Shown here piece after piece: positions 1,244-60,488 of a stretch of DNA of 64,000 bases. Each line of letters starts with the position of its first letter. Positions within the stretch are counted from its first letter, which is position 1. Made by a program: the position numbers and the translations under genes. The stretch is from Patescibacteria group bacterium (GTDB taxonomy: Bacteria > Patescibacteriota > Patescibacteriia > UBA10025 > JAHIVO01): contig JAQULM010000002.1 of assembly GCA_028718605.1 (NCBI GenBank), forward strand, positions 257,776 through 321,775, read 5' to 3'. The notes under the pieces are model-generated. The model did no database searches. It had not been told where the DNA came from and saw only the letters and a program-made list of their open reading frames with translations.

Positions 1244-2734
1244 TCACCCATTTTCCACGGGGACGGGAAATGGGTAATGGCCCGTATAGCAGGCCGTGCA
1301 ATAATTCCGAATATCGTCGCCGCGGCGATGCATGACCGTCGCGACGCCTTCAGGCGAAAGGTATCCCAAGGAATCGACTTTGAGCAACTCCTTGATCTGC
1401 GGCACTGTCAGTGACGAGGCTGCGAGCTCCTGTTTCGTCGGCATGGCGATCCCCATGAAACAGGGGTCGGTAACCGGCGGGTAGGTGATCCGAACGTGAA
1501 CCTGCTCGGCACCCGCATCTCGGAGTATTTGGACGATGCCCTGCATCGTCGTCGCACGGACGATAGAATCGTCCACGATGCAGACGCGGCGGCGACCCAC
1601 CTTCCGGAACATATCGGACATGAGCCCCAGCTTGAGCTGAACCATCAGGTCGCGAATCGTCTGCTGCGAGATGATGAATGTTCGCGGAATGGAGAAATTC
1701 CGGATGAAGATCTGCTTGACCGGTATCCCGGACTGCGTCGCATACCCGATTGCGCCCATGTCACCTGAGGTTGGAACTGAAGCAATGAAATTAGCGTCCA
1801 CCGGTGACTCATTCGCGAGTTGGCGGCCGAACGCATACGCGTAGGACCCCTTCTGACGAACGTCAGTGAACGGCCGATCATCGATAAATACCCTGCTTAC
1901 CGGGCTCGCAAAATAGTCGAGCTCGAAGATACAGTGAGCGGAGTGCTCAGGCAGATCGGACGGGTATGGGTGATGAGCCATGGTGCCATCATTCGAAATT
2001 TCCACGATTTCACCGCGCTGCACTTCGAATGCGAACTTCGCACCCAAGATATCGAGCGCACACGATTCCGAAGCGGCGACGATGATCCTGCCGTCGATAA
2101 GTCCCACGACGAGCGGCCGAACGCCCCATGGGTCACGCACGAGGTACGTCCTGCCCTTGGTCATGACCACTCCGGAGTACGCTCCCGGCACGTCACGCAT
2201 GTACTCGTGAATCGCCTGGGAACGCGGACAACCGAGACACTTCTTGCGATAGCACACGTACCGAAGCATAAATTCGCTGTCATTCCCCGATTCATGCTGC
2301 ACACCGAGCGTCTCCAGCTTTTCGCGTTCCTCCGCCAACATAGGGATATCCCCGTTCACGGCGCATACGACCCGTCCCTCATCCAGCTCATCTATAAAGA
2401 TGGGCGGATAGTTGATGAGGTCGTCGGCCGAACCAGCCGTCGCGTATCGCAGAAATCCCATGACCTTGAATGCGCCACGCTGCGTGAGCGACTGGAATTT
2501 ATCGACGAACCGGTTCCTATCCCTGCTGCGCGGATCGTACTGGTTTGCGACAAGGCCGAAAAACTTCCCGACGTGCAGGCGTACGCCGTCGCCCGGACTG
2601 TTTGTCACGTACGCAATGCCGCCGCCATCCTGGCCGCCGTGCTGCAAAACCGAAAGTCCGCAAAACATCCTCTCCGCCATTTCGAGGCCGGAAAGACGCT
2701 GATCTGGATCATGAACATACAGTACCCTGCACAT
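1244..2734 (-). CDS. purF: Amidophosphoribosyltransferase (glutamine PRPP amidotransferase).
   Basis: N-terminal Met-Cys nucleophile (MCRVL...). An LSVLQHGGQDGGGIAY motif close to the PurF LHSLQHRGQEGAGI motif. C-terminal PRTase motif VCIVDDSIVRATT. Size 496 aa fits the class. Confidence 0.85.
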   Translation of the reverse strand: MCRVLYVHDPDQRLSGLEMAERMFCGLSVLQHGGQDGGGIAYVTNSPGDGVRLHVGKFFGLVANQYDPRSRDRNRFVDKFQSLTQRGAFKVMGFLRYATAGSADDLINYPPIFIDELDEGRVVCAVNGDIPMLAEEREKLETLGVQHESGNDSEFMLRYVCYRKKCLGCPRSQAIHEYMRDVPGAYSGVVMTKGRTYLVRDPWGVRPLVVGLIDGRIIVAASESCALDILGAKFAFEVQRGEIVEISNDGTMAHHPYPSDLPEHSAHCIFELDYFASPVSRVFIDDRPFTDVRQKGSYAYAFGRQLANESPVDANFIASVPTSGDMGAIGYATQSGIPVKQIFIRNFSIPRTFIISQQTIRDLMVQLKLGLMSDMFRKVGRRRVCIVDDSIVRATTMQGIVQILRDAGAEQVHVRITYPPVTDPCFMGIAMPTKQELAASSLTVPQIKELLKVDSLGYLSPEGVATVMHRRGDDIRNYCTACYTGHYPFPVPVENG

Positions 2735-3131
2735 TCGGATCCTCCTTTCTTCTCTATATTTGTGCTGTCAATGGAACAGCGCTGTTTGTTTCTTATTTTA
2801 TTATTAACCTATCATTACTCTGTTTACTTGCTTTCTGGTAGAAAAACGTGTCGTCTATCTTTAAAAGTGAAAACAATAATACCCCTCAGCTATTATTCTG
2901 CGGAAAGAAAATATGGACTTTACTTGGAAAAAAGGAGATTTCATCGTACACCCTGAGTGCCCCTTTTGTCAACACGGGACGCCGAAACATGGATTCTGCT
3001 ATACTACAAAGGGGCAGGTATCGGTTGCAGTTGCGCCGCCCGAAAAGGTATTGGAATGCCGCACCTTCTTATCGGCGAATAACCTAAACTGAAACGATAC
3101 GGGCAGCATCAACACAAACCCAATCTCTTCT

Positions 3132-4064
3132 ATGCCAAAAAAAGTCCTCATAACCGGAACATTCGATATCATCCACCCGGGCCATATCGCGTACTTGAAT
3201 GAAGCGCGCACCCACGGGGATTCATTAATGGTGGTTATCGCTCGTGATGCCACGGTGGAAAAGGTAAAAGGCTATCGGCCATACTTCACGGAAACCGAAC
3301 GCGTGGAAAACCTGAAAAACCTCCACCGTGCGCAGCATGTACTGCTCGGCAACCGCGGGGACAAGCTCCGCATTGTCGAAGCGCTCAAGCCGGACGCGAT
3401 CTGCCTCGGGTACGACCAGCTGGCGTTCACGGAAAATCTCGCCCGCGAACTCAAACAGCGCGGACTGCATCCTGAAATAATCAGGCTCAAGCGCTACGAC
3501 CAGGTGCAGTACAAAACATCCGAATTGCACAAGAACGGCCTCGTTGCCATAAAGAATATCGACCCGACCATTCAGACTGAGCCTCGATATGCAACAACTG
3601 ATAACTTCATCGGGAAAAAACTCTACCAGAACCGCATCATCCTCGTGCGGAAAAATATCGCGGACATGCTCCAAAAAGCGCAACATATTTTACGACAGCA
3701 GAAACTGAAATTAAAAATCTGGGACGGATACCGGCCGCTCTCCGTCCAAAAAATCTTCTGGAATGCCAAACCTGACGAACAGTACATCGGCAACCCAGAA
3801 AAAGGCCCGTTCCACACGCGCGCGGCCGCCGTTGATTGCACGCTGGTCGATGCGCGGAACAATGAACTTCCAATGCCAACCCCCTTCGATGAATTTTCCG
3901 AACGGAGCCACCGTGCCTACCCGCATCCTGCAACCGAAAAACGAAACATGCTCATTCTTGAACATGCGATGGTACAAGCAGGCTTTGTCCCGTTCCCATC
4001 GGAGTGGTGGCACTTTTCCGATCCCGCGTGGCAAGCGTACCCGGTACTCGACATTTCCATCTAA
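3132..4064 (+). CDS. Fusion protein: N-terminal cytidylyltransferase-like (RibL/FAD-synthetase-like HxGH nucleotidyltransferase) domain and C-terminal D-Ala-D-Ala dipeptidase (VanX/DdpX, peptidase M15D) domain.
   Basis: N-terminus TGTFDIIHPGHIAYL carries the HxGH motif, followed by VVIARDATV. The C-terminal half has IWDGYRPLSVQ, HTRAAAVD and EWWHF, which are VanX family hallmarks. Confidence 0.6.
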   Translation: MPKKVLITGTFDIIHPGHIAYLNEARTHGDSLMVVIARDATVEKVKGYRPYFTETERVENLKNLHRAQHVLLGNRGDKLRIVEALKPDAICLGYDQLAFTENLARELKQRGLHPEIIRLKRYDQVQYKTSELHKNGLVAIKNIDPTIQTEPRYATTDNFIGKKLYQNRIILVRKNIADMLQKAQHILRQQKLKLKIWDGYRPLSVQKIFWNAKPDEQYIGNPEKGPFHTRAAAVDCTLVDARNNELPMPTPFDEFSERSHRAYPHPATEKRNMLILEHAMVQAGFVPFPSEWWHFSDPAWQAYPVLDISI

Positions 4065-4140: not shown

Positions 4141-4404
4141 ATGCCAAACAAGCACGCATCATTCAAGCATCTCCGCCAGACAAAAGTCCGGACCGAACGC
4201 AACAACCAGGTTGAAAAAACCCTGAAAGAAGCGGTAAAATCAGCGCGAGCTGCACTGTCCGCACAGGATAAGGCCAAAGCGGCTGACGCCGTTAAAAAGG
4301 CTGCCAAGCTTCTTGATAAGGCAGCGCAGAACAAAGTGATCAAACGCAACACCGCCGGCCGCATCAAATCACGGCTCGGAAGCCAGCTCGCGAAGATCAA
4401 ATAA
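4141..4404 (+). CDS. rpsT: 30S ribosomal protein S20.
   Basis: 87 aa, basic and Ala/Lys-rich (ASFKHLRQTKVRTERNNQVEK...AAKLLDKAAQNKVIKRNTAGR), typical of S20. Convergent with holA, as in many bacteria. Confidence 0.85.
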   Translation: MPNKHASFKHLRQTKVRTERNNQVEKTLKEAVKSARAALSAQDKAKAADAVKKAAKLLDKAAQNKVIKRNTAGRIKSRLGSQLAKIK

Positions 4405-5388
4405 TTACTGGGCGCCGCACGTGCGTGCGACGAACAAATCCAGCAGGAGCCGCGGCTCTGCGCGGCCTGTTTTGATGCTGAGATCAATTTCCAGTAATTG
4501 TGCGTAGATTGTTTTCAATTCCTGCAGCGTAAAACGCCGAGCATCACGGATCGCTTTCTGGGCAACAAACGGATGAATGCCAAGCCGCGTAGCGACAGTG
4601 TGATAATTCGGCTCCTGGTCAATGATTTCCCGAACTTGCAAGAGAATCCGGAACTGGCGCGTCAGCATCGTGAGGATATACAGCTCATGGTTGCCCGCAT
4701 CGAGCTGGTCGTGCAGCAGCTGCATCGACCGCTTCGCGTCCCGCGCAGCGATCGCGTCGGTAAAATGAAAAATATTTTCGTCAAACGCGCCGGTTACGTG
4801 GGTACGCACGTCTGCTGCGGCAATTTCGCGCTGTCCGCAGAATGCGATGAGCTTATCGATATTTGTCGACGCCGACCACAGGTCTGAACCAACAAGGCTC
4901 GCAAGTTCAAGCACTGCGGGTGCGGCGATCCGGCCGCCCCGCTCACGGACCGCTGCACGGATCCATGCATTGAGCTGTTCGCCGGCAAGCGGAGGAAATT
5001 CTTCCGCTTTCGCTTTGAGCAGGCGCCCGAGGAGGGTGTCTGTCGCAGGGCTGTTTTTCTTGCCCCGCCGCTTTCCTGCCACGTCCTCTTCCCAGAAAAC
5101 AAGCACGTTGTCATCCGCCCAATCCGTATCCAGATACTCCAGAACTGCCTTCTGGATATTTTTCTTCTTATTCTTTCCCAATAAATTCTCAACCACGATA
5201 AACCGCTTTGATGAGAGAAACCCCGCTTGGCCGACGTGCGTGCGCAATTCCTCGAGCGTCAGCTTCTCGCCGTCGAGGCGCGCGATATTCAAGCCGCGCG
5301 GGTCGTATTTTTTCTTGAACCCTTCGCGGTAGTAGGCGAGCCGCTGCCGCGAACGATACGTATCAGGGCCGTAGAGGAAAAGAATCAT
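4405..5388 (-). CDS. holA: DNA polymerase III delta subunit.
   Basis: 327 aa. N-terminus MILFLYGPDTYRSRQ and overall architecture typical of HolA. Adjacent to rpsT. Confidence 0.7.
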   Translation of the reverse strand: MILFLYGPDTYRSRQRLAYYREGFKKKYDPRGLNIARLDGEKLTLEELRTHVGQAGFLSSKRFIVVENLLGKNKKKNIQKAVLEYLDTDWADDNVLVFWEEDVAGKRRGKKNSPATDTLLGRLLKAKAEEFPPLAGEQLNAWIRAAVRERGGRIAAPAVLELASLVGSDLWSASTNIDKLIAFCGQREIAAADVRTHVTGAFDENIFHFTDAIAARDAKRSMQLLHDQLDAGNHELYILTMLTRQFRILLQVREIIDQEPNYHTVATRLGIHPFVAQKAIRDARRFTLQELKTIYAQLLEIDLSIKTGRAEPRLLLDLFVARTCGAQ

Positions 5389-5949: not shown

Positions 5950-8712
5950 TCACGAAACGGGCAGGTCTTTCATTTCGCCCCAGCTCTTCCCGACTGACAC
6001 GTCTGTCCTGATCGGCGCACGGAGCTTATGAACGGTGTCCATTTCCTCCGCGACAAACGTCCCGACCCGCCCAACATCCGCGTCCGGTACCTCAAACACC
6101 AGCTCGTCATGCACCTGCAGGATCATCTTGGCCTTCGGGCACACCTGGGGCAGCTTCCGGTGGATATTAATCATGGCTATCTTCATGAGATCAGCGGCTG
6201 TGCCCTGTACCGGCATATTCACGGCCATGCGCTCTGCGGATGCGCGCACCTGCGGCATCGACGAGTTTATCTCCGGCAAATATCGCCGCCTGCCGAACAG
6301 TGTCTCGACATACTCCTGCTCGTGGGCAAGCGAGATAGTCTGCGCAAGGTACTCCTGAATCTCCGGATGCGCGTAGAAATATTTCTCGATAAACGCCCGC
6401 GCGCGCTCCCGCGTCATGTTTTTCCGCGACGCCAGGCCCCACGCTCCCATGCCGTACAGCACGCCAAAATTCACCTCTTTTGCCTCATAGCGCTGGGTGT
6501 CCGTCACCTCGGCAAGCGGAATGCCGTAGATATCCGCGGCAGTCCTGCGGTGGATGTCTTCGCCGTCCTGGAACGCCTTGATCATTTTCACGTCACCGGC
6601 AAGCGACGCAACAATCCGGAGCTCGATCTGGGAATAGTCAGCTGATACGATCGAAAATCCTTTTTCGGCGATGAACGCATTCCTGATTTTCTTCCCGATT
6701 TCGGTCCTGATCGGAATATTTTGCAAATTCGGCTCAGACGATGATAAGCGGCCGGTCGCGGTCACGGTCTGGTTAAAACTTGTATGCACCCTGCCGGTTT
6801 TCGGATTCACCAGCTTTGGCAGCGCCTCGAGGTACGTTGATTGGAGCTTCGCGAGCTCCCGATTCTCAATGATAAGGGGGACGAGCGGATGTTTGTCTTT
6901 CAGCTTCTCGAGCTCCGCAGCTGCCGTGGATATGCCCGTCTTAGTCTTATGGATTCCTTCCGTGCTCACGCCCAGCTTTTCGAACAGCACGCCCTTGAGC
7001 TGGAGCGGCGAATTAATGTTAAACGTCGTCCCGGCCGTATCATAAATTTTCTTCTCGAGTGAAGCGAGTGCCGCTCCGATCTCCCGAGACATTGCCTGAA
7101 GATACTTCGAATCAATCTTGACGCCGTTCTGTTCGAGTGCGGCCAGCACCGGCACGAGCGGCATTTCAATTTTCTGCATCAGCGGCAGTAAATTCTTTTC
7201 CTCCAGCTCCGGCTTGAAATACCGGCACAGGCGGTAGGTATAGTCAGCGTCCTCGCACGAATACCATGAAATTTTCTCGACCGGCACCAGTTCCATGGAA
7301 ATGGCCTGCTTGCCCTTGCCGATGAGGTCGGTGATCGGCTGCATGCGGTACCCGAACACTTCGAACGCGCAGTTATCGAGCCCATGCCCCCGAGAGCCAG
7401 GGTTCAGGAGGTATGAGGCGACCATACTGTCAAAGGCGACCGGCGCCACCGTAATGCCAGATTGGGCCAGTAATGCCATGTCGTATTTGATATTATGGCC
7501 AAACTTTTCGATTTTCGGATCCTCAAGAAGCGGCGTAAGAGTTTTCAACCAGTGGGAATGCGCATGCACATTGAGGTAAAAAGCCTTGCCGTCTTCCCAG
7601 CAAAAACTGATCCCGAGCAGCTTGGCGCGGAACGGATCAACACTCGTGGACTCAGTATCAACGGCGAATGCGTTGTGCGTTCGCGCCTCACCAAGAAAAT
7701 CCGCGAATGCATCGTCGGAATCAACCAACGTATAGGTCACGCCCTCATGCGTTGGTGTCGGCGCTTTCTCTCCCTGAACTGTGCCAGGGCGAGCGTCCGT
7801 TTTCATTTCCGTCATGGCAGCAGGCGATCCGGGCAATCGCGTGAGGAGGCTCTTGAACTGCAGCTCGCGGAATAAGTCAACCACTTCTTGCTCATTATAT
7901 CCGCCGAGGGTGCATTGCTCAATCGTATACTCGAGTGGCACATTACGCACGATCGTTGCGAGGCGTTTGCTCATGAGCGCGTCCTTCTTGTGTTCCCGCA
8001 GAAGCTTCTGGTATCGCGGCGGGACGGGCGTTTTTCCCGACGGCGCCTCCATCTTCCGGTAGATATTTTCGAGGCCGCCAAACTTCTTGAGCAGATCGAT
8101 AGCGCCTTTTTCGCCAATGCCACGGACGCCCGGAATGTTATCAGAGGGATCACCGGCGATTGCCTTGAGGTCAACCATCTGCTCTGGAGCAAGGCCGTAC
8201 CGCTCAGCAAACGCTTTGATGTCATACGTGATAGTGTCAGAAACTCCTTTACGCAGCGTGTACACGGTTGTTTTGTCGCTGATGAGCTGGAATGTGTCTT
8301 TGTCGCCCGTAACAATCACCGTCTTGAGACCGCGCTTTTCGTTGTCGGCTGCGAGCGTGCCAATAATATCATCTGCTTCGAACCCGTCTTTCTCGAATAC
8401 GCGGACGTGTAGCGCTCCGAGCGCTTGTTTTGCGATCGGAATCTGCGCATAGAATTCGTCCGGTGCGGCAACGCGTCCCGCTTTGTATTCTGCGTATTCC
8501 TCGTGCCTGAACGTTTTCTTTTTCTTGTCGAATGCGGCTGCAACGTATGCGGGCTTGAATTCCTTCAATACTTTGAAGAGTACGGTTAAAAAACCGTACA
8601 CGGCGTTCACGAGCTGGCCCTTCTTGGTCGCGAGCGGCGGCAGCGCATGAAAGCTCCGGTGCAGCAACGCATTGGCGTCTATCACCACGAATGTCTTTGC
8701 GGTAGTCTTCAT
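5950..8712 (-). CDS. polA: DNA polymerase I (5'-3' exo, 3'-5' exo-like and polymerase domains).
   Basis: N-terminus MKTTAKTFVVIDANALLHRSFHA is the 5'-nuclease domain. Polymerase motifs RYEAKEVNFGVLYGMG and ILQVHDELVFEV are present. The track ORF extends to 8775, but an extended -10 (TGgTACAAT) inside that extension (rc of 8731-8739) supports the ATG at 8712. Confidence 0.88.
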   Translation of the reverse strand: MKTTAKTFVVIDANALLHRSFHALPPLATKKGQLVNAVYGFLTVLFKVLKEFKPAYVAAAFDKKKKTFRHEEYAEYKAGRVAAPDEFYAQIPIAKQALGALHVRVFEKDGFEADDIIGTLAADNEKRGLKTVIVTGDKDTFQLISDKTTVYTLRKGVSDTITYDIKAFAERYGLAPEQMVDLKAIAGDPSDNIPGVRGIGEKGAIDLLKKFGGLENIYRKMEAPSGKTPVPPRYQKLLREHKKDALMSKRLATIVRNVPLEYTIEQCTLGGYNEQEVVDLFRELQFKSLLTRLPGSPAAMTEMKTDARPGTVQGEKAPTPTHEGVTYTLVDSDDAFADFLGEARTHNAFAVDTESTSVDPFRAKLLGISFCWEDGKAFYLNVHAHSHWLKTLTPLLEDPKIEKFGHNIKYDMALLAQSGITVAPVAFDSMVASYLLNPGSRGHGLDNCAFEVFGYRMQPITDLIGKGKQAISMELVPVEKISWYSCEDADYTYRLCRYFKPELEEKNLLPLMQKIEMPLVPVLAALEQNGVKIDSKYLQAMSREIGAALASLEKKIYDTAGTTFNINSPLQLKGVLFEKLGVSTEGIHKTKTGISTAAAELEKLKDKHPLVPLIIENRELAKLQSTYLEALPKLVNPKTGRVHTSFNQTVTATGRLSSSEPNLQNIPIRTEIGKKIRNAFIAEKGFSIVSADYSQIELRIVASLAGDVKMIKAFQDGEDIHRRTAADIYGIPLAEVTDTQRYEAKEVNFGVLYGMGAWGLASRKNMTRERARAFIEKYFYAHPEIQEYLAQTISLAHEQEYVETLFGRRRYLPEINSSMPQVRASAERMAVNMPVQGTAADLMKIAMINIHRKLPQVCPKAKMILQVHDELVFEVPDADVGRVGTFVAEEMDTVHKLRAPIRTDVSVGKSWGEMKDLPVS

Positions 8713-9090
8713 ATATTTTATACTGGCGTTATTGTACCATTTTTTCTGCCCGCCGTCCCTGCGGACAAATCGCATTGACAGTACGCATACGGCCTATGGT
8801 ACACTTGAAGTATAAAAGGGGGTGTTTGGTTGTCTCCCGATTCACTGAGAGGGGGAATCGAGAGTTCCTTCATCGGTTCGATGCCACAGATGGCATCGAA
8901 AGGTGCCACCAGGCACCGTAGTATCATCGACCGGCCGCCACACGTTCTGAAGTATCTTGATTTTCAGCGGCCGGTCTTTTTTTATTCCATCCAATGCTTG
9001 ACAAATAATGAATTCTCCAATACTATCACCTGATTTGCGTCACTCGCGTTTTTTGACAACATAACAACACGGAAAGAAAGGAAACTGCCA

Positions 9091-18654: not shown

Positions 18655-20976
18655 TCACGATTGCTGTGCGTTTTTCTTTTTGAGTATATACCACCGTAGC
18701 GCAAAACCAACGCCAGCTGCCGCACCAACGGATGCGATGACGATAACGGGAACCGAGGACGGCTGTTCGGGAATGTTCTGTGGCAACTCAACGGTACCTT
18801 CAGTCGACGTACCGAGAACGGTGCCCTCGCGCGTGGTGGCCGCTTCTGGGGCAATGGCAATATCGCCCTCTCCCCTCGGCAGTATCCGCAACCCGGCATC
18901 TGTCTTATCAAGGACTCCGGTTATAGTAATGCCGGCGCCTGCCGTAACGTCTGGCTTTGCCATGCCGGTTTTCGCTTGAATATACGCTCGGATTGAATTC
19001 CCCTGTGAGTCAACAATATAGACGCTCCGGCCGCTCACGCTTTCAACTTCACCAGAAATAGTAATCAGATCGCCAATCATCGCTTCATTAATATCGCCGA
19101 TCCCAACACGTTTAGGCGCGGAGCCGTTTGCACCATCTTCCCGCTCATCAACTGCGCTACTGCTCACCGGCGTTGCAGTTTTTTTGACGCTCCGTTCTTC
19201 GGTCTCGGCTTCTTCCTCGAGAGCATCGGCATTCTCGGCACCGGGCGTCGGTTCGTCAGTCCAGTACCATCCGTCCGACGATGCCGTGCGGGCAAATGAT
19301 AACCCTTCCTTGGCAGTTTCATACGAAACGCCGTTGATAATGCCGCCGTGCGGATCGATGAGGTAAACAGTTTCACGGTCATTATTCAGACTGATACGGC
19401 TCTCCGCGCGTTCCAAAAGAAAATAATCATGCGCTGCGATCTTCGAACCGGGCGGGAATGAAAAATACACCTTTGAATCGGTTACCTGCCAACAGTCCAG
19501 CGAGACATCGCGGCTGCCCGCATTGTACAGTTCGATAAATTCGCACTCCTGGTCCGGACCGGTGCAATTCGGGAATAGCTCGCTGAAAATAACATCGTTT
19601 GAATAATCAAAATCGGTTACGGTTACCGGCTCCTCAACTTCTGACTCGCCGCCATTGCCGTCCTGCACCAGCAATGTGACGGTGTATTTTCCCGCTTTCG
19701 GATACGAGTATTCAATTTCAACGCCATTACCGTCACCTCCATCTCCAAAATTCCAGATATACTCAAGCGAATCCCCATCGGGGTCATCCGAATCGGCGGC
19801 ACTAAACTGCACTGGCTGCCCGACTTTCGGCGATTCCTTATCGATTGAAATGATTGCTTCGGGCTGCTGGTTCGAAACGGTAAAAATATTCGCCTCTCCC
19901 GGCGTCGGCTGGTACGACCATGCCCATTCACCGTCAACCAAACTATACGAACGCCCTTCAGCGCAGCCAGCGTAGGTTACTGAATCCAGTGCGTTTCCAT
20001 TCGGCTGATACAGTGTAACGCCATCGGTTGAATTATTCAGCATAATGCCCGAAACGGACTTCGAAATCGTGAAAAAACCTCCGCCGGGAATAATCGTCGT
20101 ACTGAAATCCTCCTTCACGATTGTATAGCGCCGGGTACTCTGGTCACCGGCCTGCCAGCCTGCAACATCAACAGGCGTCGTGCCAGTATTGGCGAGCTCA
20201 ATAAATTCAGCATCGTCGCTGCCTTCGGGATTCGGAAGCAATTCGGACAACGCGATTGCGGTGGAATACGCTGGGCTTGCCGGGGGCGCTGGAGGCTCCG
20301 AGGGCTCTGCGGGATCATCAGGCGCTTCCGGTTCGTCCGGAACTTCGATGTTCAAATATTCCTGTTCAGACGCTGCGTCCTGCGGTTCGGACACGTCCCG
20401 AATATTGAAATCCGCGGCGTTTTGATCGGTGTCTTCCCCATTACCGAGATAGTAATGCGCTCCTCCCTCAACCATCGTTTCTGCCGTTGAATCAGCCTGC
20501 GCTTTGCGCTCCACGCTTTTATTCGGGCCAGGATTCGGGAGTGCCGCTCCCTCAAAAACCGACGCTGTACCAAAACCAACGGCGTCAACAACTTCTGCTG
20601 CGGCATCGAGGAGCAGGACTGTATTATTGTCAGCGATCGAGGTGGTGGTCGAGTAGTACAAATCAGGCTGTACACTGCCGAGGTACCCGGCAGGGTGCGC
20701 AACCAGTACGAAGGAATGTGCAGGAATGGAGCGGTCCCCAAACGTATCGACCAGAATATATTCCGTTCCCGAGGCTGTCTTTTTAATCAGCTGCCAACCA
20801 TCGACACTCACCGCACCATCCATCGGATTGTACAACTCGATAAACTCGTCCGTTGTCTTCCCGCTGCCGCCGGTTATTTGCACCTCGCTGATGACGATGT
20901 GGTCCACGGTTATTGCGTCACTAATAAACGGCCACGCGAAAAGCATCGCGATGAGGACAAACAGGAACTTTTTCAT
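18655..20976 (-). CDS. Large surface protein with three lamin-tail-domain (LTD) repeats, a PKD-like domain and a C-terminal TM anchor.
   Basis: Signal peptide MKKFLFVLIAMLFAW. LTD signatures IVISEVQ..DEFIELYNP, ALSELLPNPEGSDDAEFIELAN and VIFSELFPN..ECEFIELYN. The PKD-like block is YIWNFGDGGDG...KYTVTLLVQD. C-terminal hydrophobic segment plus KKKN. Confidence 0.6.
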   Translation of the reverse strand: MKKFLFVLIAMLFAWPFISDAITVDHIVISEVQITGGSGKTTDEFIELYNPMDGAVSVDGWQLIKKTASGTEYILVDTFGDRSIPAHSFVLVAHPAGYLGSVQPDLYYSTTTSIADNNTVLLLDAAAEVVDAVGFGTASVFEGAALPNPGPNKSVERKAQADSTAETMVEGGAHYYLGNGEDTDQNAADFNIRDVSEPQDAASEQEYLNIEVPDEPEAPDDPAEPSEPPAPPASPAYSTAIALSELLPNPEGSDDAEFIELANTGTTPVDVAGWQAGDQSTRRYTIVKEDFSTTIIPGGGFFTISKSVSGIMLNNSTDGVTLYQPNGNALDSVTYAGCAEGRSYSLVDGEWAWSYQPTPGEANIFTVSNQQPEAIISIDKESPKVGQPVQFSAADSDDPDGDSLEYIWNFGDGGDGNGVEIEYSYPKAGKYTVTLLVQDGNGGESEVEEPVTVTDFDYSNDVIFSELFPNCTGPDQECEFIELYNAGSRDVSLDCWQVTDSKVYFSFPPGSKIAAHDYFLLERAESRISLNNDRETVYLIDPHGGIINGVSYETAKEGLSFARTASSDGWYWTDEPTPGAENADALEEEAETEERSVKKTATPVSSSAVDEREDGANGSAPKRVGIGDINEAMIGDLITISGEVESVSGRSVYIVDSQGNSIRAYIQAKTGMAKPDVTAGAGITITGVLDKTDAGLRILPRGEGDIAIAPEAATTREGTVLGTSTEGTVELPQNIPEQPSSVPVIVIASVGAAAGVGFALRWYILKKKNAQQS

Positions 20977-21434
20977 ATATCTTTACGGTCAGTGTTTGAG
21001 GTGTCGCCGCCGGTATCGGCATACGGTTGCGTTCTGCGGCGATTTGTAAATGTATCCCATGCAATTGCCAAATTGAATAATTGCCGTGCAGATTTATCAT
21101 ATTCATTAATAAGCTTTTCACATACCGTTGTCTCAATTTGGTAAATATCTCGAATTTGTTCAAGGCTGACGACACATTCATTGCACTCAGCCATTGCGTC
21201 GTCGATATATTTCTGAAAACCACGCTTCTGATGTTTTTTGGCATACCCTTCCGCAACTAACCGGGGTGCTGCTTTACTTGACCTGCTGAGCTGATCTTTG
21301 AGGTCAAATTTTTCACATCCTGGCAATTGTGGAATTACCACGGTCATCACTTCGATGCATGCGGTATATAAATTTCTAAATACCTCTAAATCCTTAAAAC
21401 TTTTAATTGGACTACTCATATGTTGTTTACACAA
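20973..21434 (-). CDS. Four-helix-bundle protein of the family often annotated as 23S rRNA intervening-sequence protein.
   Basis: LEVFRNLY ... APRLVAEGYAKKHQKRGFQKYIDDAMAECNE matches this family. It overlaps the LTD gene start by 4 nt. The start could be 21434 or 21419; neither has an SD. Confidence 0.6.
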   Translation of the reverse strand: MCKQHMSSPIKSFKDLEVFRNLYTACIEVMTVVIPQLPGCEKFDLKDQLSRSSKAAPRLVAEGYAKKHQKRGFQKYIDDAMAECNECVVSLEQIRDIYQIETTVCEKLINEYDKSARQLFNLAIAWDTFTNRRRTQPYADTGGDTSNTDRKDI

Positions 21435-27058: not shown

Positions 27059-28213
27059 CTAGAAGAGCTTTCCGGTAAGGGATCGGTGTTTAAGATCCTC
27101 GATGAGGGCGCTAACCGGGCGGCCGTCGTGAATCCGACGAATCGTCCGGGCAAAAATCGGCGCGGCATCAAGAACCTTCACCTTACTCGGGACCACGCCA
27201 TCGAACGCGACTGTATTGGTTGTCACCAGCTGCGTGATGGGTGACACCTCAAGTCTCTCTCCCGCACCGTCGGACGCAACCAAATGGGCAACAAACGAGT
27301 AAATACTCGCCGCGCCCAACCCGTCAAGCTGCTCTGCGGCACCGATGTTGGTGCTCCCCTTAAGAATCTCGTCATCCCACATGATACAGTGCCTGCCGGT
27401 GATAGACGCCCGCGTCTCCTTCAAAAGAGGGCTCTCTGTATCATCAGGTCGGAACTTGTGGACGATAACGAGCTGGTCGGGTGCCAATCCGAGATCGATC
27501 GCAATCTTCTGGGCATTCTTGATCCGCCCGTCGTCCGCGAGCGCTACGACCCAATCCCTCCGACCCTGCTCACGGATGTACTGGTAGAACAGGGGGGCGG
27601 CATAGATGTGGTCAAACGTTCGAGGGTCGAAAAATCCCTGAATCTGTGCGGCATGCAGGTCCATCGCGAGAATTCGATGTGCGCCTGCCATCTCGAGCAG
27701 ATCAGCGACGAGCTTCGCTGTGATTGAAATTCGGCCCTCTACTTTCTTGTCCGAGCGGGCGTAAAAGTAGTACGGCATCACGACCGTGATCCGATTCGCA
27801 GACGCCCCCTTCAGTGCGTCAACGATGATCAGAAGCTCCATGAAATCCTTATTGCAGAGCAAGCTCGCAATGTTTGGAATCCAACCGAGCATCTTGATGA
27901 GGCTCAACGCATACTGCCTCGTGGGGTTTGCGAGCTTCTCGACGCACTCCCGGAACAACTCGAGTACCTGCCCGCGCGCATCAGCGCCAAGTTCCGTGAA
28001 GAAGCGGTTATCAATGTTGCCGCGTGCTCCACTCTGGAACACAAATACATCCGCTTCGCGGACGTTTTCGCCGACAGTTACCTTAATATTGCCGTTCGAA
28101 AAGTCTACAAAGTTGATGTCCGTCACCGGAATCTTCAGGTAGTCGCAGACACCTGCTGTCAGCCGTGGATTTGACCGACCGCCACACACCACCATCTTCC
28201 CATACCTGGTCAT
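27059..28213 (-). CDS. prs: Ribose-phosphate pyrophosphokinase (PRPP synthetase), long form with an insertion.
   Basis: N-terminal MVVCGGRSNPRL..CDYLKIP block, PRPP-binding loop ALADDGRIKNAQKIA, and a GGAG SD before the ATG at 28213. The track ORF extends to 28312 without support. Confidence 0.75.
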   Translation of the reverse strand: MTRYGKMVVCGGRSNPRLTAGVCDYLKIPVTDINFVDFSNGNIKVTVGENVREADVFVFQSGARGNIDNRFFTELGADARGQVLELFRECVEKLANPTRQYALSLIKMLGWIPNIASLLCNKDFMELLIIVDALKGASANRITVVMPYYFYARSDKKVEGRISITAKLVADLLEMAGAHRILAMDLHAAQIQGFFDPRTFDHIYAAPLFYQYIREQGRRDWVVALADDGRIKNAQKIAIDLGLAPDQLVIVHKFRPDDTESPLLKETRASITGRHCIMWDDEILKGSTNIGAAEQLDGLGAASIYSFVAHLVASDGAGERLEVSPITQLVTTNTVAFDGVVPSKVKVLDAAPIFARTIRRIHDGRPVSALIEDLKHRSLTGKLF

Positions 28214-28366
28214 ACAATCTCCATCCTTTCTCCGTATGATTCTATCAAGATAACAATCTGTATTTTTTTTAAAACGGCTCTTCATCTTACCGCTCACGAA
28301 ATTGTCTGTCAAACTTGTATTTTTGCTATTTATATATAATATAGGTAAGATTCACAGTGAGCGTAC

Positions 28367-29561: not shown

Positions 29562-30896
29562 ATGTCAGCACATGAATCAACCGTCGATATTCTCATTATC
29601 GGCGGTGGTGGGCGTGAACTCACGATCGCCTGGAAATTACGGCAATCGCGCCGGGCTGGCAGGATTTTCATCGCACCAGGCAATGCGATGGTTGCGCGGC
29701 TCAAAGATGTCGAAGTCGCAATGCTCAATGGCGCGCCGATCAAGGCTAACGATATCGAAGGCCTCAAACAGTTTGCCCTGAGCCATTCGATCGGCCTGAC
29801 AGTCGTCGGGCCAGAAGGGCCGCTCTGCGCCGGTATCGTCGATGGGTTCGAAAAGGCCGGGCTCACGATTTTTGGCCCGAACAAAATTGCTTCCTGCCTC
29901 GAGGGATCCAAGGCAGTCGCCAAGGAACTCATGAAGGAATGCGGCATTCCCACGGCAGCGTTCGAAATCTTCACCGATTTCGATAAGGCCTGTGCCTCTG
30001 TGCGAAAACACTTCGCCGCGTCTGACGCGCCGATCGTCATCAAGGCGGACGGCCTGTGTGGCGGCAAAGGCGTCCGGGTCTGCCAATCGCTTGCCGAGGC
30101 AGAAGAATTCCTCACGATGCTCATGAAGACCAAGGTATTCGGCAAAGCCGGCACCATGGTCGTCATCGAGGACTTTCTCCGAGGGCAGGAAGTGTCGGTG
30201 ATGGGACTGTGGGACGGGAAAACACTCAGGATGTTGCTCCCTTCGCAGGACCACAAGCGTGTCGGCGACGGCGACACCGGGCCGAACACCGGCGGCATGG
30301 GCGCGTACGCTCCCGTACCGTGGGTTACCGACGCGATGCTCGAGAGTATCGGGGAAACGATTTTCCTGCCGATGCTGCAGGGTCTCCAGAAAAAGGCCCA
30401 CGTCGAGTACCGGGGCGTCCTCTACGCCGGATTGATCTGTGTCGACGGCATGTTCTGCGTTCTGGAGTACAACGTGCGCTTCGGGGATCCCGAAACGCAG
30501 GCAGTGCTGCCGCTCCTGAAGACAGATCTCCTCGAGCTCATGCTCGCATGCGTCAATGGCACCCTCGACAGCATCGATTTAGAATGGGAACCGGGATACG
30601 CGGTATGCGTTGTGACCGTAGCAAAACCCTACCCGGACAAGCCGAAAACTGGCTTCCCAATATCGGGCATCGCCGACGCCGAAACGACCGAAGGCGTTAT
30701 CGTGATCGACGCCGGCACCCAGCTCGATGAAAGTGGCCAGGTGATCACTGCCAGCGGACGCGTACTCGGCGTGATTGGACTGGACGATACGCTTCAGAAC
30801 GCGATCAATCGCGCCTACCGGGGGGTTGGGCGGATCGGGTACGATCACATGGGCTACCGCCATGATATCGGCAGAAAAGGTCTTATCAAACAATGA
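29562..30896 (+). CDS. purD: Phosphoribosylamine-glycine ligase.
   Basis: ATP-grasp PurD motifs (ILIIGGGGRE, VIKADGLCGGKGV, GGMGAYAPV, EYNVRFGDPETQ). GGAGG SD. Upstream promoter-like TTGCCT-16-TACAAT. Confidence 0.9.
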   Translation: MSAHESTVDILIIGGGGRELTIAWKLRQSRRAGRIFIAPGNAMVARLKDVEVAMLNGAPIKANDIEGLKQFALSHSIGLTVVGPEGPLCAGIVDGFEKAGLTIFGPNKIASCLEGSKAVAKELMKECGIPTAAFEIFTDFDKACASVRKHFAASDAPIVIKADGLCGGKGVRVCQSLAEAEEFLTMLMKTKVFGKAGTMVVIEDFLRGQEVSVMGLWDGKTLRMLLPSQDHKRVGDGDTGPNTGGMGAYAPVPWVTDAMLESIGETIFLPMLQGLQKKAHVEYRGVLYAGLICVDGMFCVLEYNVRFGDPETQAVLPLLKTDLLELMLACVNGTLDSIDLEWEPGYAVCVVTVAKPYPDKPKTGFPISGIADAETTEGVIVIDAGTQLDESGQVITASGRVLGVIGLDDTLQNAINRAYRGVGRIGYDHMGYRHDIGRKGLIKQ

Positions 30897-31004: not shown

Positions 31005-31733
31005 ATGAATATGATCGGCACATACCGCGTTACTCTCAGGGAAAAACGCGATGTCGCGGACGGCACCGTATCGCTCCACTTTGACCGGCCTGCCGGGTTT
31101 GAATACGCGGCCGGGCAATTTGCGACGCTCGTCAATGACGACCAAAAGCAAAACGACGGCCGCGGCAACCGGCGGCCAATGTCGATCGGCTCTTCTCCGA
31201 CTGAAAACGAAATTCAATTCGCCATGCGCCTGAGCGATTCGGCGTATAAGCGAGGCATCAAAGACGCTCGGCCAGGCTGCCATTTCTCAATCATCGGGCC
31301 TGCGGGAGAATTGACCTTGCCCGAAAACCCTTCCCTGCCGATCGCGTTCATAGCGGGCGGCGTTGGTATCGTGCCATTCCGCGGAATGGCGAAATACGCG
31401 ATCGATACCAACCAACCGCATGACATTACCCTTTTCTATCTCAACCGGACGCCGCGTGGCTCTCCGTATCTCGACGAATTACGAAATTTCGCGGGCCAAT
31501 CCAAACGCTTCCGTTTCGTTCCAATCATGACAGCGTGCGGTCCCGATGATGCATGGGATGGATTGCGCGGGCACCTCGATGAGCCAATGCTGAAAAACGC
31601 GCTTCCAGACATCGTCAACACCACCTATATGCTCGTCGGCACTCCTGGAATGCTCACTGCCGTCGTTGCCCTGCTCGAAAAGCTCTGTGTTCCGCGCGAG
31701 CACATCCTGACTGAAAAATTTACGGGGTATTAA
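31005..31733 (+). CDS. Ferredoxin-NADP reductase-like FAD/NAD(P)-binding oxidoreductase.
   Basis: FAD-binding R-x-Y-S-like block (RRPMSIGSSP) and NAD-binding GGVGIVPF. Confidence 0.55.
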   Translation: MNMIGTYRVTLREKRDVADGTVSLHFDRPAGFEYAAGQFATLVNDDQKQNDGRGNRRPMSIGSSPTENEIQFAMRLSDSAYKRGIKDARPGCHFSIIGPAGELTLPENPSLPIAFIAGGVGIVPFRGMAKYAIDTNQPHDITLFYLNRTPRGSPYLDELRNFAGQSKRFRFVPIMTACGPDDAWDGLRGHLDEPMLKNALPDIVNTTYMLVGTPGMLTAVVALLEKLCVPREHILTEKFTGY

Positions 31734-33677: not shown

Positions 33678-34147
33678 ATACATCGCAGCATCAGAACAGT
33701 ATCAACACTTTATCCTCAACAATCGAAAATATGCAAAAAACCCTAATAACTAACCAAAAAGGCGGCTAAATCGTACTATTTGTTGACGGTTTAGTCCCGC
33801 CAAAAGCGGGATTTTTGTTACTCCGAGCGAAGCGAGGAGTAACAACCCCGAGGGAATCGAGGGGTCCCACAGTTTGAAAGCTCAAAACGAAGAGGCGGCG
33901 GAAATATGGCTGAGGCAACAACCCCGAGAGAGCCGTCGGCGAATCGAAGGGTCCCCAAGCACTGCCGCCCAACGTACTTAATACCAAATATCCGAACTGC
34001 CGATCACTCTATCCTCGATAGAATGGTTCCAGATCAGATCTTTGACCGGACATTAACAACTGAATATGGTAGAACGAGATCTTGTAAGCAAGTTAAGTAA
34101 GTATACTAAGACACAAGGACGCAAGTTCAGTGTTTTAGTGATTGCAA

Positions 34148-37272
<3,125 letters not shown>

Positions 37273-37468
37273 CATATTGCAATCACTAATACGCTGATCT
37301 TTTTAGAATCCGTTCTACCATATGAACAAAGACTACGGTCCGCACCTTATTGCGGTCTTTGTTCTGGTGATAGTCCTCTTCGGACTTCTATTTTACCTGA
37401 CGCCGCTCTCATCCTAAGACCGGTCACCAGTGGCCAGAGAGAACAACCATGGTTCGTTGTTCGCTGGC

Positions 37469-37585
37469 CTCTGGTGATTAAGCACCAGGGTCACACCTGA
37501 TCCCATTCCGAACTCAGTCGTTAAGCCTGGTAGCGCCAATGATACTACGGGGCATACTGTCGGGAAAGTAGGTTATCGCCAGAAC
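37469..37585 (+). rRNA. rrf: 5S ribosomal RNA.
   Basis: Helix I CTCTGGTGAT/ATCGCCAGA. Conserved CCCATTCCGAACTCAG and GGTAGCGCCAATGATACTAC blocks. Confidence 0.8.
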
Positions 37586-41692: not shown

Positions 41693-42481
41693 CTAACGCA
41701 ATAGCTTCAGAACTTGTGTATGCAGCTGTTTATTTGCCGCTACAATACGATGCACTTTTGTATCAAATGGGTTGATCTCCTTGCCACCAAGATCTGTCAC
41801 TGTACCCCCTGCTTCAGCCACAATCAAAGATGCAGCGGCCATATTTATACCAGTAGTATCCGCCGTCCAAACATCAATTGATCCGTCTGCAATTCTCGTA
41901 AGGACCCATGGTGCTGAGCCGAGGATCCTGACCTTCCGAACCACGGGCGCTAATTTTTGTAAAATATGCAATCCGCGGGGAATATATTTCTTCCTGGTAT
42001 CTTGTACATGCCACGAGTACCATCCTGTGCAAACCACTGCTTGGGACAGCATTCCATTTGCAGAAACATGGATGCGCTTATGGTTTAAGACCGATCCCTT
42101 CCCACGCTCTGCAACATACACATCGCCAAGAATATGGTTCGCAACCACTCCCAGAACAACACGGCTGTCCTTAATGAGCGCGATAGAAGTGCAAAAACAG
42201 GGGATATTATGAAGAGAATTAATCATGCCATCGATCGGATCAATCAGCCAAACATAGCGCGCCCGCTTCTCGCTCTTCCAGTAGACGTCTGAAAAAATCC
42301 CGTGGGAAGGAAATGCCTTCTGGATCCGGCGAATCAACATACGTTCAACCATTACATCAATACTGGTAGTTTCATGCCTGGGAAGTTCAAATTTCGTCGT
42401 TGCTTTGATGTGGCGTAAATGCTTTTGCAACATCTGCACTGCTGACCGCGCCGCATACACGGCGACTTGTCGTGGAGTCAT
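41693..42481 (-). CDS. suhB: Inositol monophosphatase family protein.
   Basis: WLIDPIDGMINSLHNIP (DPIDGT motif) and WTADTTG..AAASLIVAEAGG C-terminal motif. Confidence 0.75.
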   Translation of the reverse strand: MTPRQVAVYAARSAVQMLQKHLRHIKATTKFELPRHETTSIDVMVERMLIRRIQKAFPSHGIFSDVYWKSEKRARYVWLIDPIDGMINSLHNIPCFCTSIALIKDSRVVLGVVANHILGDVYVAERGKGSVLNHKRIHVSANGMLSQAVVCTGWYSWHVQDTRKKYIPRGLHILQKLAPVVRKVRILGSAPWVLTRIADGSIDVWTADTTGINMAAASLIVAEAGGTVTDLGGKEINPFDTKVHRIVAANKQLHTQVLKLLR

Positions 42482-54300: not shown

Positions 54301-54765
54301 ATGAAAGCCCTCATCATCTACGACTCCCTGTACGGCAACACGGAAAAAATTGCGCGTACGATCGGCGCCGCATTAGGTGGCGGCACTCGCGTTCTCAAAG
54401 TGAACGAAGCTTCTGCTGCTGAAACAAACGCATGCGAACTGCTCATCATCGGTTCGCCAACCCACGGCGGTAGGCCATCGCAGCCAATGCAGCAATTCCT
54501 CAACCAAATCCCCGCTGGTGCATTGACGAGCATCCGTGCGGCAGCATTCGATACTGGCAACACGCCCGAAGGCCAGGGTGGGCTCATCCGCATAGTCATT
54601 AAATTCTTCGGCTACGCGTCAAAGCGGATCGCCGGTATCCTCAAATCAAAGGGTGCGATAGCCGTCGCGGCAGAAACATTCTTCGTGCTCGGCAAAGAAG
54701 GTCCACTCAAGGACGGCGAGGTGGAACGGGCACAGGGCTGGGCGAAAAAACTTATAACACCATAA
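54301..54765 (+). CDS. Flavodoxin-like protein.
   Basis: MKALIIYDSLYGNTEKIA flavodoxin N-terminus. IGSPTHGG. Confidence 0.7.
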   Translation: MKALIIYDSLYGNTEKIARTIGAALGGGTRVLKVNEASAAETNACELLIIGSPTHGGRPSQPMQQFLNQIPAGALTSIRAAAFDTGNTPEGQGGLIRIVIKFFGYASKRIAGILKSKGAIAVAAETFFVLGKEGPLKDGEVERAQGWAKKLITP

Positions 54766-59930: not shown

Positions 59931-60488
59931 ATGAAAAAGACATATGAAAACCTGCTGAAAGCAATCGCAGGAGAGTCAATGGCCCGGAATAAGTACACTT
60001 TTTTCGCTAAGCAAGCGCGCAAAGAAGGTTACGAATGGATCGCACGCGTCTTTGAAGAAACAGCGGATAACGAACGCGCCCATGCCGAGGAAGAGCTGGA
60101 ATACATCCCGGAAAAAACGGAGATGACCAATACATACGACATCCACCCGGTTGCCGACACGCTGACAAACCTGAAACATGCAGCCGAGGGGGAAGAATAC
60201 GAGTTCGGCACCATGTACCCTGATTTCCAAAAAGTTGCCGAGGAAGAAGGAGAGAAAGACATCGCTGAATTATTCAAGCGAATTGCGATGGTCGAGGAAA
60301 AACATGCAGAACGGTATCGCATCCTCCTCAAAAAACTCGAAGACGGCACGCTGTACGCAAGCGAAAAGGAAATCGAATGGAAATGCGAGAATTGCGGATA
60401 CATCCATAAGGGTAAAAACGCGCCGGGCAAATGCCCGCTCTGCAAAAAAGCCCAAGGGTGGTACCGCGGGCTCGGTATTGTCCGATAA
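59931..60488 (+). CDS. Rubrerythrin.
   Basis: Ferritin-like E..EXXH pairs (ESMARNKY, ADNERAHAEE, EGEEYEF, MVEEKHAERY) and a C-terminal rubredoxin-like CENCGY...CPLCK. Confidence 0.85.
   Translation: MKKTYENLLKAIAGESMARNKYTFFAKQARKEGYEWIARVFEETADNERAHAEEELEYIPEKTEMTNTYDIHPVADTLTNLKHAAEGEEYEFGTMYPDFQKVAEEEGEKDIAELFKRIAMVEEKHAERYRILLKKLEDGTLYASEKEIEWKCENCGYIHKGKNAPGKCPLCKKAQGWYRGLGIVR

Follow-up and report, generated by a model that had tools for sequence, protein, structure and literature searches.

A 64,000-nucleotide (nt) stretch of contig JAQULM010000002.1 from a Patescibacteria group bacterium (assembly GCA_028718605.1), referred to below as the window, carries a gene in which a RibL-type nucleotidyltransferase is joined to a DdpX/VanX-type M15 dipeptidase. 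RibL makes flavin adenine dinucleotide (FAD) from flavin mononucleotide (FMN), and DdpX and VanX cleave D-Ala-D-Ala. A preliminary description of this DNA had pointed to one uninterrupted open reading frame (ORF) at 3132..4064 (+) holding the signature motifs of both families, and the frame is present exactly so: it encodes 310 amino acids (aa), with TGTFDIIHPGHIAYL at aa 8-22, IWDGYRP at aa 196-202, HTRAAAVD at aa 228-235 and EWWHF at aa 291-295. The gene and its parts are the following.

3132..4064, + strand: complete fusion gene, with an ATG start, 310 codons and a TAA stop at 4062-4064
3132..3539, + strand: N-terminal RibL-type nucleotidyltransferase domain, aa 1-136 (predicted FMN adenylyltransferase / FAD synthase), assigned from PF01467, identity to the RibL of Methanocaldococcus jannaschii (MjRibL) and the structure 3glv
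3174..3185, + strand: HxGH motif, H15-P-G-H18, the nucleotide-phosphate-binding signature, invariant in 28 fusion members, RibL and standalone relatives
3513..3521, + strand: K128-T129-S130, a degenerate equivalent of the second nucleotidyltransferase motif (ISSTxxR), on the final RibL-domain loop, directly before the junction
3522..3539, + strand: junction, E131-L-H-K-N-G136, where the RibL tail passes without a linker straight into a DdpX-type protein at about its residue 7
3540..4061, + strand: C-terminal DdpX/VanX-type M15 zinc dipeptidase domain, aa 137-310 (predicted D-Ala-D-Ala dipeptidase), assigned from PF01427, DdpX identity and the VanX fold
3729..3737, + strand: Y200-R201-P202, its Arg aligned with R71 of E. 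coli DdpX, invariant in fusions and DdpX-like proteins
3813..3836, + strand: H228-x6-D235, opposite two zinc ligands of VanX and aligned to VanX HSRGSAID, invariant
3888..3890, + strand: D253, aligned with a VanX Asp, invariant
4002..4013, + strand: E291-W-W-H294, opposite the Glu that serves VanX as catalytic base and the His that forms its third zinc ligand, invariant

Two known enzyme families in one protein

The domain calls of the preliminary description, a RibL-like first half and a VanX/DdpX-like second half whose catalytic motifs are intact, were borne out by Pfam, by a PDB sequence search and by Foldseek. Pfam placed PF01467 (CTP_transf_like) at aa 7-131 (E 1.9e-17, 64 bits, gathering cut-off 21) and PF01427 (Peptidase_M15, D-Ala-D-Ala dipeptidase) at aa 134-299 (E 5.8e-36, 124.6 bits, gathering cut-off 27), both well over their thresholds, and refinement of the boundaries set the N-domain at aa 1-136 and the beginning of the M15 domain at L137, opposite DdpX residue 7. 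Searching PDB by sequence matched aa 4-134 to 3glv, a 143-aa RibL-like protein of Thermoplasma (E 4.7e-24), and aa 144-295 to VanX 1r44 (E 1.9e-16). An AlphaFold2 model built from 28 orthologues of the fusion protein was confident along its full length (pLDDT, predicted local distance difference test, 94.1; pTM, predicted template-modelling score, 0.88). Compared with PDB by Foldseek, its N-half matched 3glv (TMt 0.92, root-mean-square deviation 1.6 Å, 39% identity) and its C-half VanX 1r44 (TMt 0.74, E 6e-16), while no solved chain spanned both halves. The protein sequence shows neither a signal peptide nor a hydrophobic segment at its N-terminus. Since in addition a nucleotidyltransferase needs nucleoside triphosphates, the protein is predicted to be cytoplasmic.

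The N-terminal half shares with characterised MjRibL (MJ1179, Q58579; KEGG K14656) the small Rossmann nucleotidyltransferase fold, the GTFDxxHPGH motif and 43% identity over 131 aa (109 bits, E 3e-34); the reference sequence used, Q58579/WP_010870692, was confirmed as an exact match. Similarity to other characterised nucleotidyltransferases was much lower (ECT 34 bits, HldC 34, TarD 32, TagD 26). Among NCBIfam models the top N-terminal match was rfaE domain II with 67.5 bits against a cut-off of 181.5, g3p_cytidyltrns reached 33.3 bits against 165.4, and the PPAT and TagD models were also far short of their cut-offs. An assignment as TagD, HldE or PPAT was rejected, since these scores lie far under both the RibL score and the NCBIfam cut-offs. 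On these comparisons the N-domain groups with the FMN adenylyltransferase RibL and not with the cell-wall sugar- or glycerol-nucleotide enzymes. In the earlier term 'RibL-like cytidylyltransferase fold', cytidylyltransferase is only the Pfam name of the fold, and characterised RibL is mainly an adenylyltransferase.

Within the N-domain, G9, T10, D12, H15 and H18 are invariant across the 28 fusion members as well as RibL and the standalone relatives. The second motif keeps a YK[TS][SG] pattern in fusions and standalone forms and is otherwise degenerate, and pLDDT drops to 77 in the block that holds K128-T129-S130; an active RibL-type FAD synthase from Entamoeba has a likewise degenerate second motif (PMC11423594). 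Among the matches listed, the nearest standalone relatives (46-60% identity, 128-150 aa) come from Woesearchaeota, Nanoarchaeota, Methanosarcinales and Patescibacteria and are labelled FAD synthetase or FAD synthase by JGI and NCBI, labels that are annotations only. The best structural match to this half, 3glv, is a Thermoplasma volcanium 'LPS core biosynthesis protein', a RibL-like product of structural genomics; unlike the fusion it is single-domain and archaeal, and its function is not experimentally established. MjRibL differs from the fusion too: ours is a bacterial protein, from the Candidate Phyla Radiation (CPR), its activity is predicted, and it carries an extra 174-aa C-terminal M15 peptidase in place of the C-terminal helix of archaeal RibL, a helix that is also absent from standalone CPR/DPANN RibL.

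The M15 half aligns with the whole of characterised E. coli DdpX (41% identity over 171 aa, 134 bits, E 2e-43). R201, H228, D235, D253, E291 and H294 are invariant in the 28 orthologues and aligned with both VanX and DdpX. We take R201 to be VanX Arg71 (transition-state stabilisation) and H228 and D235 to correspond to VanX His116 and Asp123; D253 is presumably VanX Asp142, with a role at the substrate amino group, and E291 and H294 presumably Glu181 and His184. The fusion shares all catalytic and zinc residues with E. coli DdpX (b1488), a cytoplasmic enzyme of the ddpXABCDF starvation operon, and is itself predicted to be cytoplasmic; unlike DdpX, it has no ddp transporter operon nearby, is joined to RibL and scores under the equivalog cut-off. 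With VanX of the Enterococcus vanHAX cluster (PDB 1r44) it has in common the M15D fold and the active site, yet identity is only 29%. Because the NCBIfam VanX score (67.8) is far short of its cut-off (320) and neither vanH nor vanA lies in the context, the M15 half is best described as DdpX-like and not as a resistance VanX. Both modules belong to well-known families (RibL-type FMN adenylyltransferases; MEROPS M15D DdpX/VanX), and the protein does not represent a new kind of system.

At the join (...YKTS-ELHKNG-LVAIKNIDPT...) the end of RibL abuts the start of the M15 domain. Standalone CPR/DPANN ribL genes end 3-10 codons past the YK[ST]S loop, and standalone DdpX-like proteins start 2-7 residues ahead of the 'LV(D/A)(L/I)' strand. 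The alignment of the 28 orthologues, which also served to build the search profile used below, has 0 gaps and no conserved internal Met in the junction columns. The two coding sequences are thus joined end to end with practically no linker, the outcome to be expected when the stop and the start that separate neighbouring genes are lost. Across the 28 fusions the two halves have diverged equally fast (mean pairwise identity 53.6% for the N-half and 56.5% for M15), and their divergence co-varies (r = 0.79).

Recurrence, locus and history of the fusion

An identical protein (P0001, 100%), recorded at NCBI as 'M15 family metallopeptidase', occurs in three independent assemblies: the NCBI Patescibacteria metagenome-assembled genome (MAG) GCA_028711455.1 and two Logan assemblies from different sequencing runs. 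Both Pfam domains occur in about 30 more clusters (at 90% identity) as well. These are 49-66% identical, nearly all exactly 310 aa long, and derive from Patescibacteria, Kerfeldbacteria or 'Parcubacteria group' MAGs of unrelated projects, so that the same architecture does exist in other genomes. A scan of genome contigs found the full fusion in at least two species-representative genomes (L007, L008). Database names for these proteins are generic ('M15 family metallopeptidase', 'adenylyltransferase/cytidyltransferase family protein'). The preliminary description had allowed for a frameshift or fusion artefact, and the recurrence refutes it: three assemblies hold the identical ORF, and some 30 orthologues agree in their gap-free junction and in their synteny. 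That an assembly, frameshift or gene-calling error joined two genes is accordingly extremely improbable.

Some apparent exceptions were seen among the clusters. Two 279-aa 'M15-only' proteins (P0017, P0023) proved to be intact fusions with mis-called starts, their frame extending upstream to MKKVLVTGTFDIIHPGH. A 148-aa 'standalone' RibL-like protein (P0121, on an ENA contig of 754 nt) ends in ...YKTSLLHKNNLVAIKKYRSNYYH, keeping the first junction residues and then diverging; it looks like a truncated fusion but may also be a frameshifted one, or catch the M15 half in the course of decay, and it did not enter the evidence.

An exhaustive profile search of 1.84 billion 50%-identity representatives returned a single end-to-end match (P0024, 521 bits). 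The second-best match (301 bits) was a tandem double-M15 protein and the remaining ones covered the M15 part only; those reaching back to profile position ~90-104, in the N-half, contained no PF01467 domain. The tandem proteins (P0033-P0035 and P0202, 398-427 aa) are unusual in their own right, being secreted and built of two DdpX-like M15 domains. Since only one of the 1.84 billion representatives matches end to end, the architecture is confined to this family. Our literature search found no paper on the RibL-M15 combination and none on RibL in CPR bacteria. Taken with the absence of a spanning structure, this agrees with the initial remark that the combination had not been described, and the architecture is clade-restricted and apparently undescribed.

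The gene occupies one locus in all fused genomes compared, even where identity is as low as 49%: uvrB, sigma70, a hypothetical gene, next (purF), which points away from the fusion gene, then the fusion gene and rpsT in the forward direction, then holA and polA in the reverse direction. The window holds the following neighbours.

1244..2734, - strand: purF (amidophosphoribosyltransferase), the divergent upstream neighbour in the conserved locus
2735..3131, + strand: leader between purF and the fusion gene, 397 nt, AT-richer (GC 0.43-0.48)
4141..4404, + strand: rpsT (ribosomal protein S20), 76 nt downstream of the fusion gene, kept as a neighbour in every fused and unfused relative
4405..5388, - strand: holA, convergent with rpsT, a synteny anchor and species marker
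5950..8775, - strand: polA, convergent with rpsT, a synteny anchor and species marker

Rfam scans of the leader, at gathering and at E-value thresholds, gave no FMN riboswitch or other Rfam element, and its predicted RNA fold (z-score +0.8) shows no unusual structure. A promoter and terminator scan, otherwise uninformative, gave a single weak sigma-70-like site at 2867-2896 in the leader and no terminator-like site in the 76-nt gap to rpsT; the fusion gene and rpsT are probably co-transcribed, judging from this layout. The leader also contains a 59-aa ORF (2913..3092, +) with a CPFC...H...C pattern, which is uncalled in public assemblies.

In five close relatives (L055, L048, L050, L090, L091) a standalone ribL of 133-150 aa fills the slot of the fusion, about 55-90 nt from rpsT and with no M15 remnant. 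In L066 a standalone ribL sits between uvrB and purF. The standalone proteins of sister Patescibacteria (P0200 in L055; P0201 in L066, a Kerfeldbacteria 'FAD synthase'; P0132 in L090; P0123 in L091) are orthologous to the N-half and 49-56% identical to it; unlike the fusion, they stop 3-10 residues past YKSS. Throughout the genomes compared ribL is never lost from the slot, and the M15 half looks optional in its own clade.

Phylogenies place these unfused genomes among the fused ones. In a neighbour-joining (NJ) tree of PolA rooted with the E. coli protein, the unfused L066 (Kerfeldbacteria CG08) is basal, with 97% support for the rest; the next branches are the fused L005 and L006 and then the fused L004 (100%), and a crown (96%) unites the window genome and L007, both fused, with L048, L050, L055, L090 and L091. 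These five unfused genomes are nested within the crown with support of 96-100%. The HolA tree agrees, with unfused L048, L050 and L055 nested inside fused genomes. Analysed among 82 standalone homologues and E. coli DdpX, all 28 fusion M15 domains group in one clade with no intruders. A tree of the RibL domains intersperses 15 standalone genes among the fusions. The simplest history has ribL capturing and fusing with a DdpX-like gene once, the fusion then descending vertically, and the M15 domain being deleted at least once and probably several times. We propose that a DdpX-like gene landed once, directly 3' of the housekeeping ribL at the purF-ribL-rpsT / holA-polA locus, in an ancestor of the Kerfeldbacteria-related Patescibacteria; that the ribL stop and the M15 start would then have been lost, giving the end-to-end join; and that the fusion was presumably passed on under purifying selection on both active sites, until several descendant lineages may have deleted the M15 half again while always keeping ribL.

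Two of the unfused MAGs, L048 and L050, are titled 'uncultured Gammaproteobacteria bacterium' (binchicken co-assemblies). Given a PolA 68% identical to that of the window and the same rpsT/holA/polA synteny, they are Patescibacteria and the label is wrong. Five more genomes with a standalone ribL (L077, L078, L083, L084, L086) bear the same title.

Proposed function and competing explanations

We favour, with a probability of about 0.6, a bifunctional cytoplasmic enzyme that would combine an FMN adenylyltransferase and a D-Ala-D-Ala dipeptidase, each active site working independently of the other. The ORF, both folds, the conserved catalytic residues, the recurrence, the synteny, the restriction to one clade and the pattern of gain and loss are shown by the data; which reactions and substrates the halves serve, and that they do so independently, is what we infer. 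The RibL-family module would convert FMN and ATP to FAD for the flavoenzymes of the organism, and the Zn-dependent D,D-dipeptidase module would hydrolyse cytoplasmic D-Ala-D-Ala to two D-Ala, its purpose being likely a DdpX-like dipeptide salvage or turnover and not VanX-type vancomycin resistance. A flavodoxin (an FMN protein; 54301..54765, +) and an FNR-like NAD_binding_1 oxidoreductase (31005..31733, +) are encoded in the window, which indicates that the organism clearly uses flavins, and Parcubacteria keep the FAD enzymes MurB and TrxB (PMC4508563). As the M15 half has been lost repeatedly and no related genes lie next to it, the fusion would reflect co-expression or genome compaction, not an obligate pathway link.

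Several results weigh against this proposal. The 64-kb window and its flanks yielded no riboflavin kinase, no flavin transporter and no FMN riboswitch. The NCBIfam DdpX equivalog model (NF007557) gives 157.6 bits, just short of its cut-off of 176, and the VanX score lies further still below its own. The trees behind the proposed history are NJ trees of few taxa, with a bootstrap of only 35/60 for M15 monophyly. The zero-length, indel-free junction, together with the pTM, suggests in the model a fixed inter-domain geometry with room for functional cross-talk, which is unexpected for two merely co-expressed modules. Cys126 and Cys143 of MjRibL, residues tied to air sensitivity and metal binding, are absent from the fusions and from the CPR/DPANN standalone forms in our alignment. 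Finally, no ribK or ribF was reported in Parcubacteria by Nelson & Stegen (PMC4508563). As to the cysteines, they are dispensable for activity, because an Entamoeba RibL-type enzyme that lacks both is an active, ATP-specific FAD synthase (PMC11423594).

The two halves might instead form a functionally coupled cell-wall or D-Ala module, the fusion enforcing stoichiometry or allosteric cross-talk: FAD could serve MurB in UDP-MurNAc synthesis while the dipeptidase controls the D-Ala-D-Ala pool of MurF, or released D-Ala could feed an FAD-dependent D-amino-acid dehydrogenase. The rigid join without linker or indels, the high pTM of the model, the tethering of the M15 domain directly after the nucleotide-binding KTS loop, the equal evolutionary rates of the halves and the place of MurB among the few FAD enzymes kept by Parcubacteria (PMC4508563) speak for such a link. 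Yet at least five close relatives keep ribL without the M15 half and with no replacement nearby, and the conserved neighbourhood and the whole window contain no flavin, mur, ddl, alr, dadA, van or ddp gene. We know of no pathway linking FAD synthesis to D-Ala-D-Ala hydrolysis, and regard this coupling as improbable. The preliminary description had suggested a version of it, in which synthesis of a nucleotide-activated intermediate is coupled to peptidoglycan D-Ala-D-Ala turnover; that version is not supported, given the RibL type of the N-domain, its orthology to a standalone housekeeping gene at the same locus and the several sister lineages without M15. Quite improbable, in our view, is a mechanistic linkage of the active sites in one rigid enzyme, where the Zn-peptidase would gate or allosterically control FAD synthesis according to the D-Ala-D-Ala or D-Ala pool or, more radically, the HxGH domain would activate the peptidase product. 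If it held, one protein would tie flavin supply (MurB, TrxB) to peptidoglycan-precursor status, a metabolic coupling previously unknown, and would be the first biochemically defined bacterial RibL.

Each half could also have another task. That the N-domain acts on a different phosphorylated substrate (a sugar-1-phosphate, glycerol-phosphate or phosphopantetheine) for an envelope polymer, both halves then working in envelope biogenesis and thus nearer to what the preliminary description suggested, would fit its best NCBIfam match to rfaE domain II, the missing RibL cysteines, a riboflavin kinase neither known in these bacteria (PMC4508563) nor present in the window, and the fact that our literature search turned up no characterised bacterial member of the RibL family. 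We consider it unlikely, because the rfaE score is far under its cut-off, similarity to RibL is about three times that to HldC, TagD and ECT, the nearest standalone relatives (among the matches listed) all belong to the DPANN/methanogen RibL group, and the Cys-less Entamoeba enzyme makes FAD (PMC11423594). Similarly, a score short of the DdpX equivalog threshold, the absence of ddpABCDF and vanHA context and the exact replacement of the Cys143-bearing C-terminal segment of MjRibL would be expected of an M15 domain repurposed for another small amide or dipeptide (e.g. D,D- or L,D-), or kept as an oligomerisation or stabilising module in lieu of the RibL C-terminal helix and Cys pair. Such a change of role is also unlikely: the zinc ligands, the catalytic Glu, the Arg and the Asp aligned with VanX Asp142 are all invariant over the 28 orthologues, identity to E. 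coli DdpX extends over the full length, and standalone CPR/DPANN RibL proteins, which also lack the C-terminal helix, work without an M15 domain.

FMN adenylyltransferase modules often have a second catalytic domain as fusion partner, which gives a precedent for a bifunctional protein. Bacterial RibF joins an FMN adenylyltransferase to a second catalytic domain, a riboflavin kinase, which is a flavin-metabolic partner, and eukaryotic and plant FAD synthases are fused to an active or inactivated FAD pyrophosphatase domain (PMC9678776). In the fusion, unlike in RibF and these FAD synthases, the partner is a peptidase without known flavin connection; a peptidoglycan-dipeptide hydrolase as partner of an FMN adenylyltransferase is unprecedented within the literature that we searched. 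Should both halves be active, this would be the first RibL-type (archaeal) FAD synthase module shown as a conserved bacterial housekeeping gene. Parcubacteria/CPR bacteria were reported without ribF, ribK or ribL despite keeping MurB and TrxB (PMC4508563), and a conserved housekeeping ribL would fill part of this gap in FAD supply. The DdpX half suggests that these episymbionts may hydrolyse D-Ala-D-Ala in the cytoplasm, which bears on how they feed on or remodel cell walls. The fusion would also offer a natural construct for the biochemistry of bacterial RibL, and one gain with several losses in a single syntenic slot amounts to a natural experiment on the birth and decay of domain fusions in streamlined genomes.

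Other genes in the window

About 35 kb from the fusion gene lie an NTP_transferase gene (a sugar-1-phosphate nucleotidylyltransferase, PF00483; 38657..39493, +) and an inositol monophosphatase-family gene (41693..42481, -), which indicate that sugar-nucleotide synthesis has enzymes of its own in this genome. A rubrerythrin gene (59931..60488, +) adds an anaerobe-type oxidative-stress protein to the organism that encodes the flavoproteins. Besides purF, the purine and phosphoribosyl pyrophosphate (PRPP) genes include a PRPP synthetase and purD (27059..28312, -, and 29562..30896, +), and a second GARS-like gene follows past the window end (L087, 20414..21188). These de novo purine/PRPP genes are notable, since the usual description of CPR genomes is that nucleotide biosynthesis is missing from them.

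The 23S rRNA gene (34142..37284, +) measures 3143 nt against a model of 2925 nt and may hold an insertion of about 200 nt. A 5S rRNA gene (37470..37584, +) follows it; no 16S gene lies upstream, where a protein ORF ends about 600 nt before the 23S gene. By this gene order the rRNA operon is unlinked, a frequent arrangement in CPR bacteria. Elsewhere in the window, a gene for a PF05635 '23S rRNA-intervening sequence protein' of the four-helix-bundle family (20973..21434, -) lies directly downstream of the gene for a surface protein of 773 aa with LTD and PKD domains (18655..20976).

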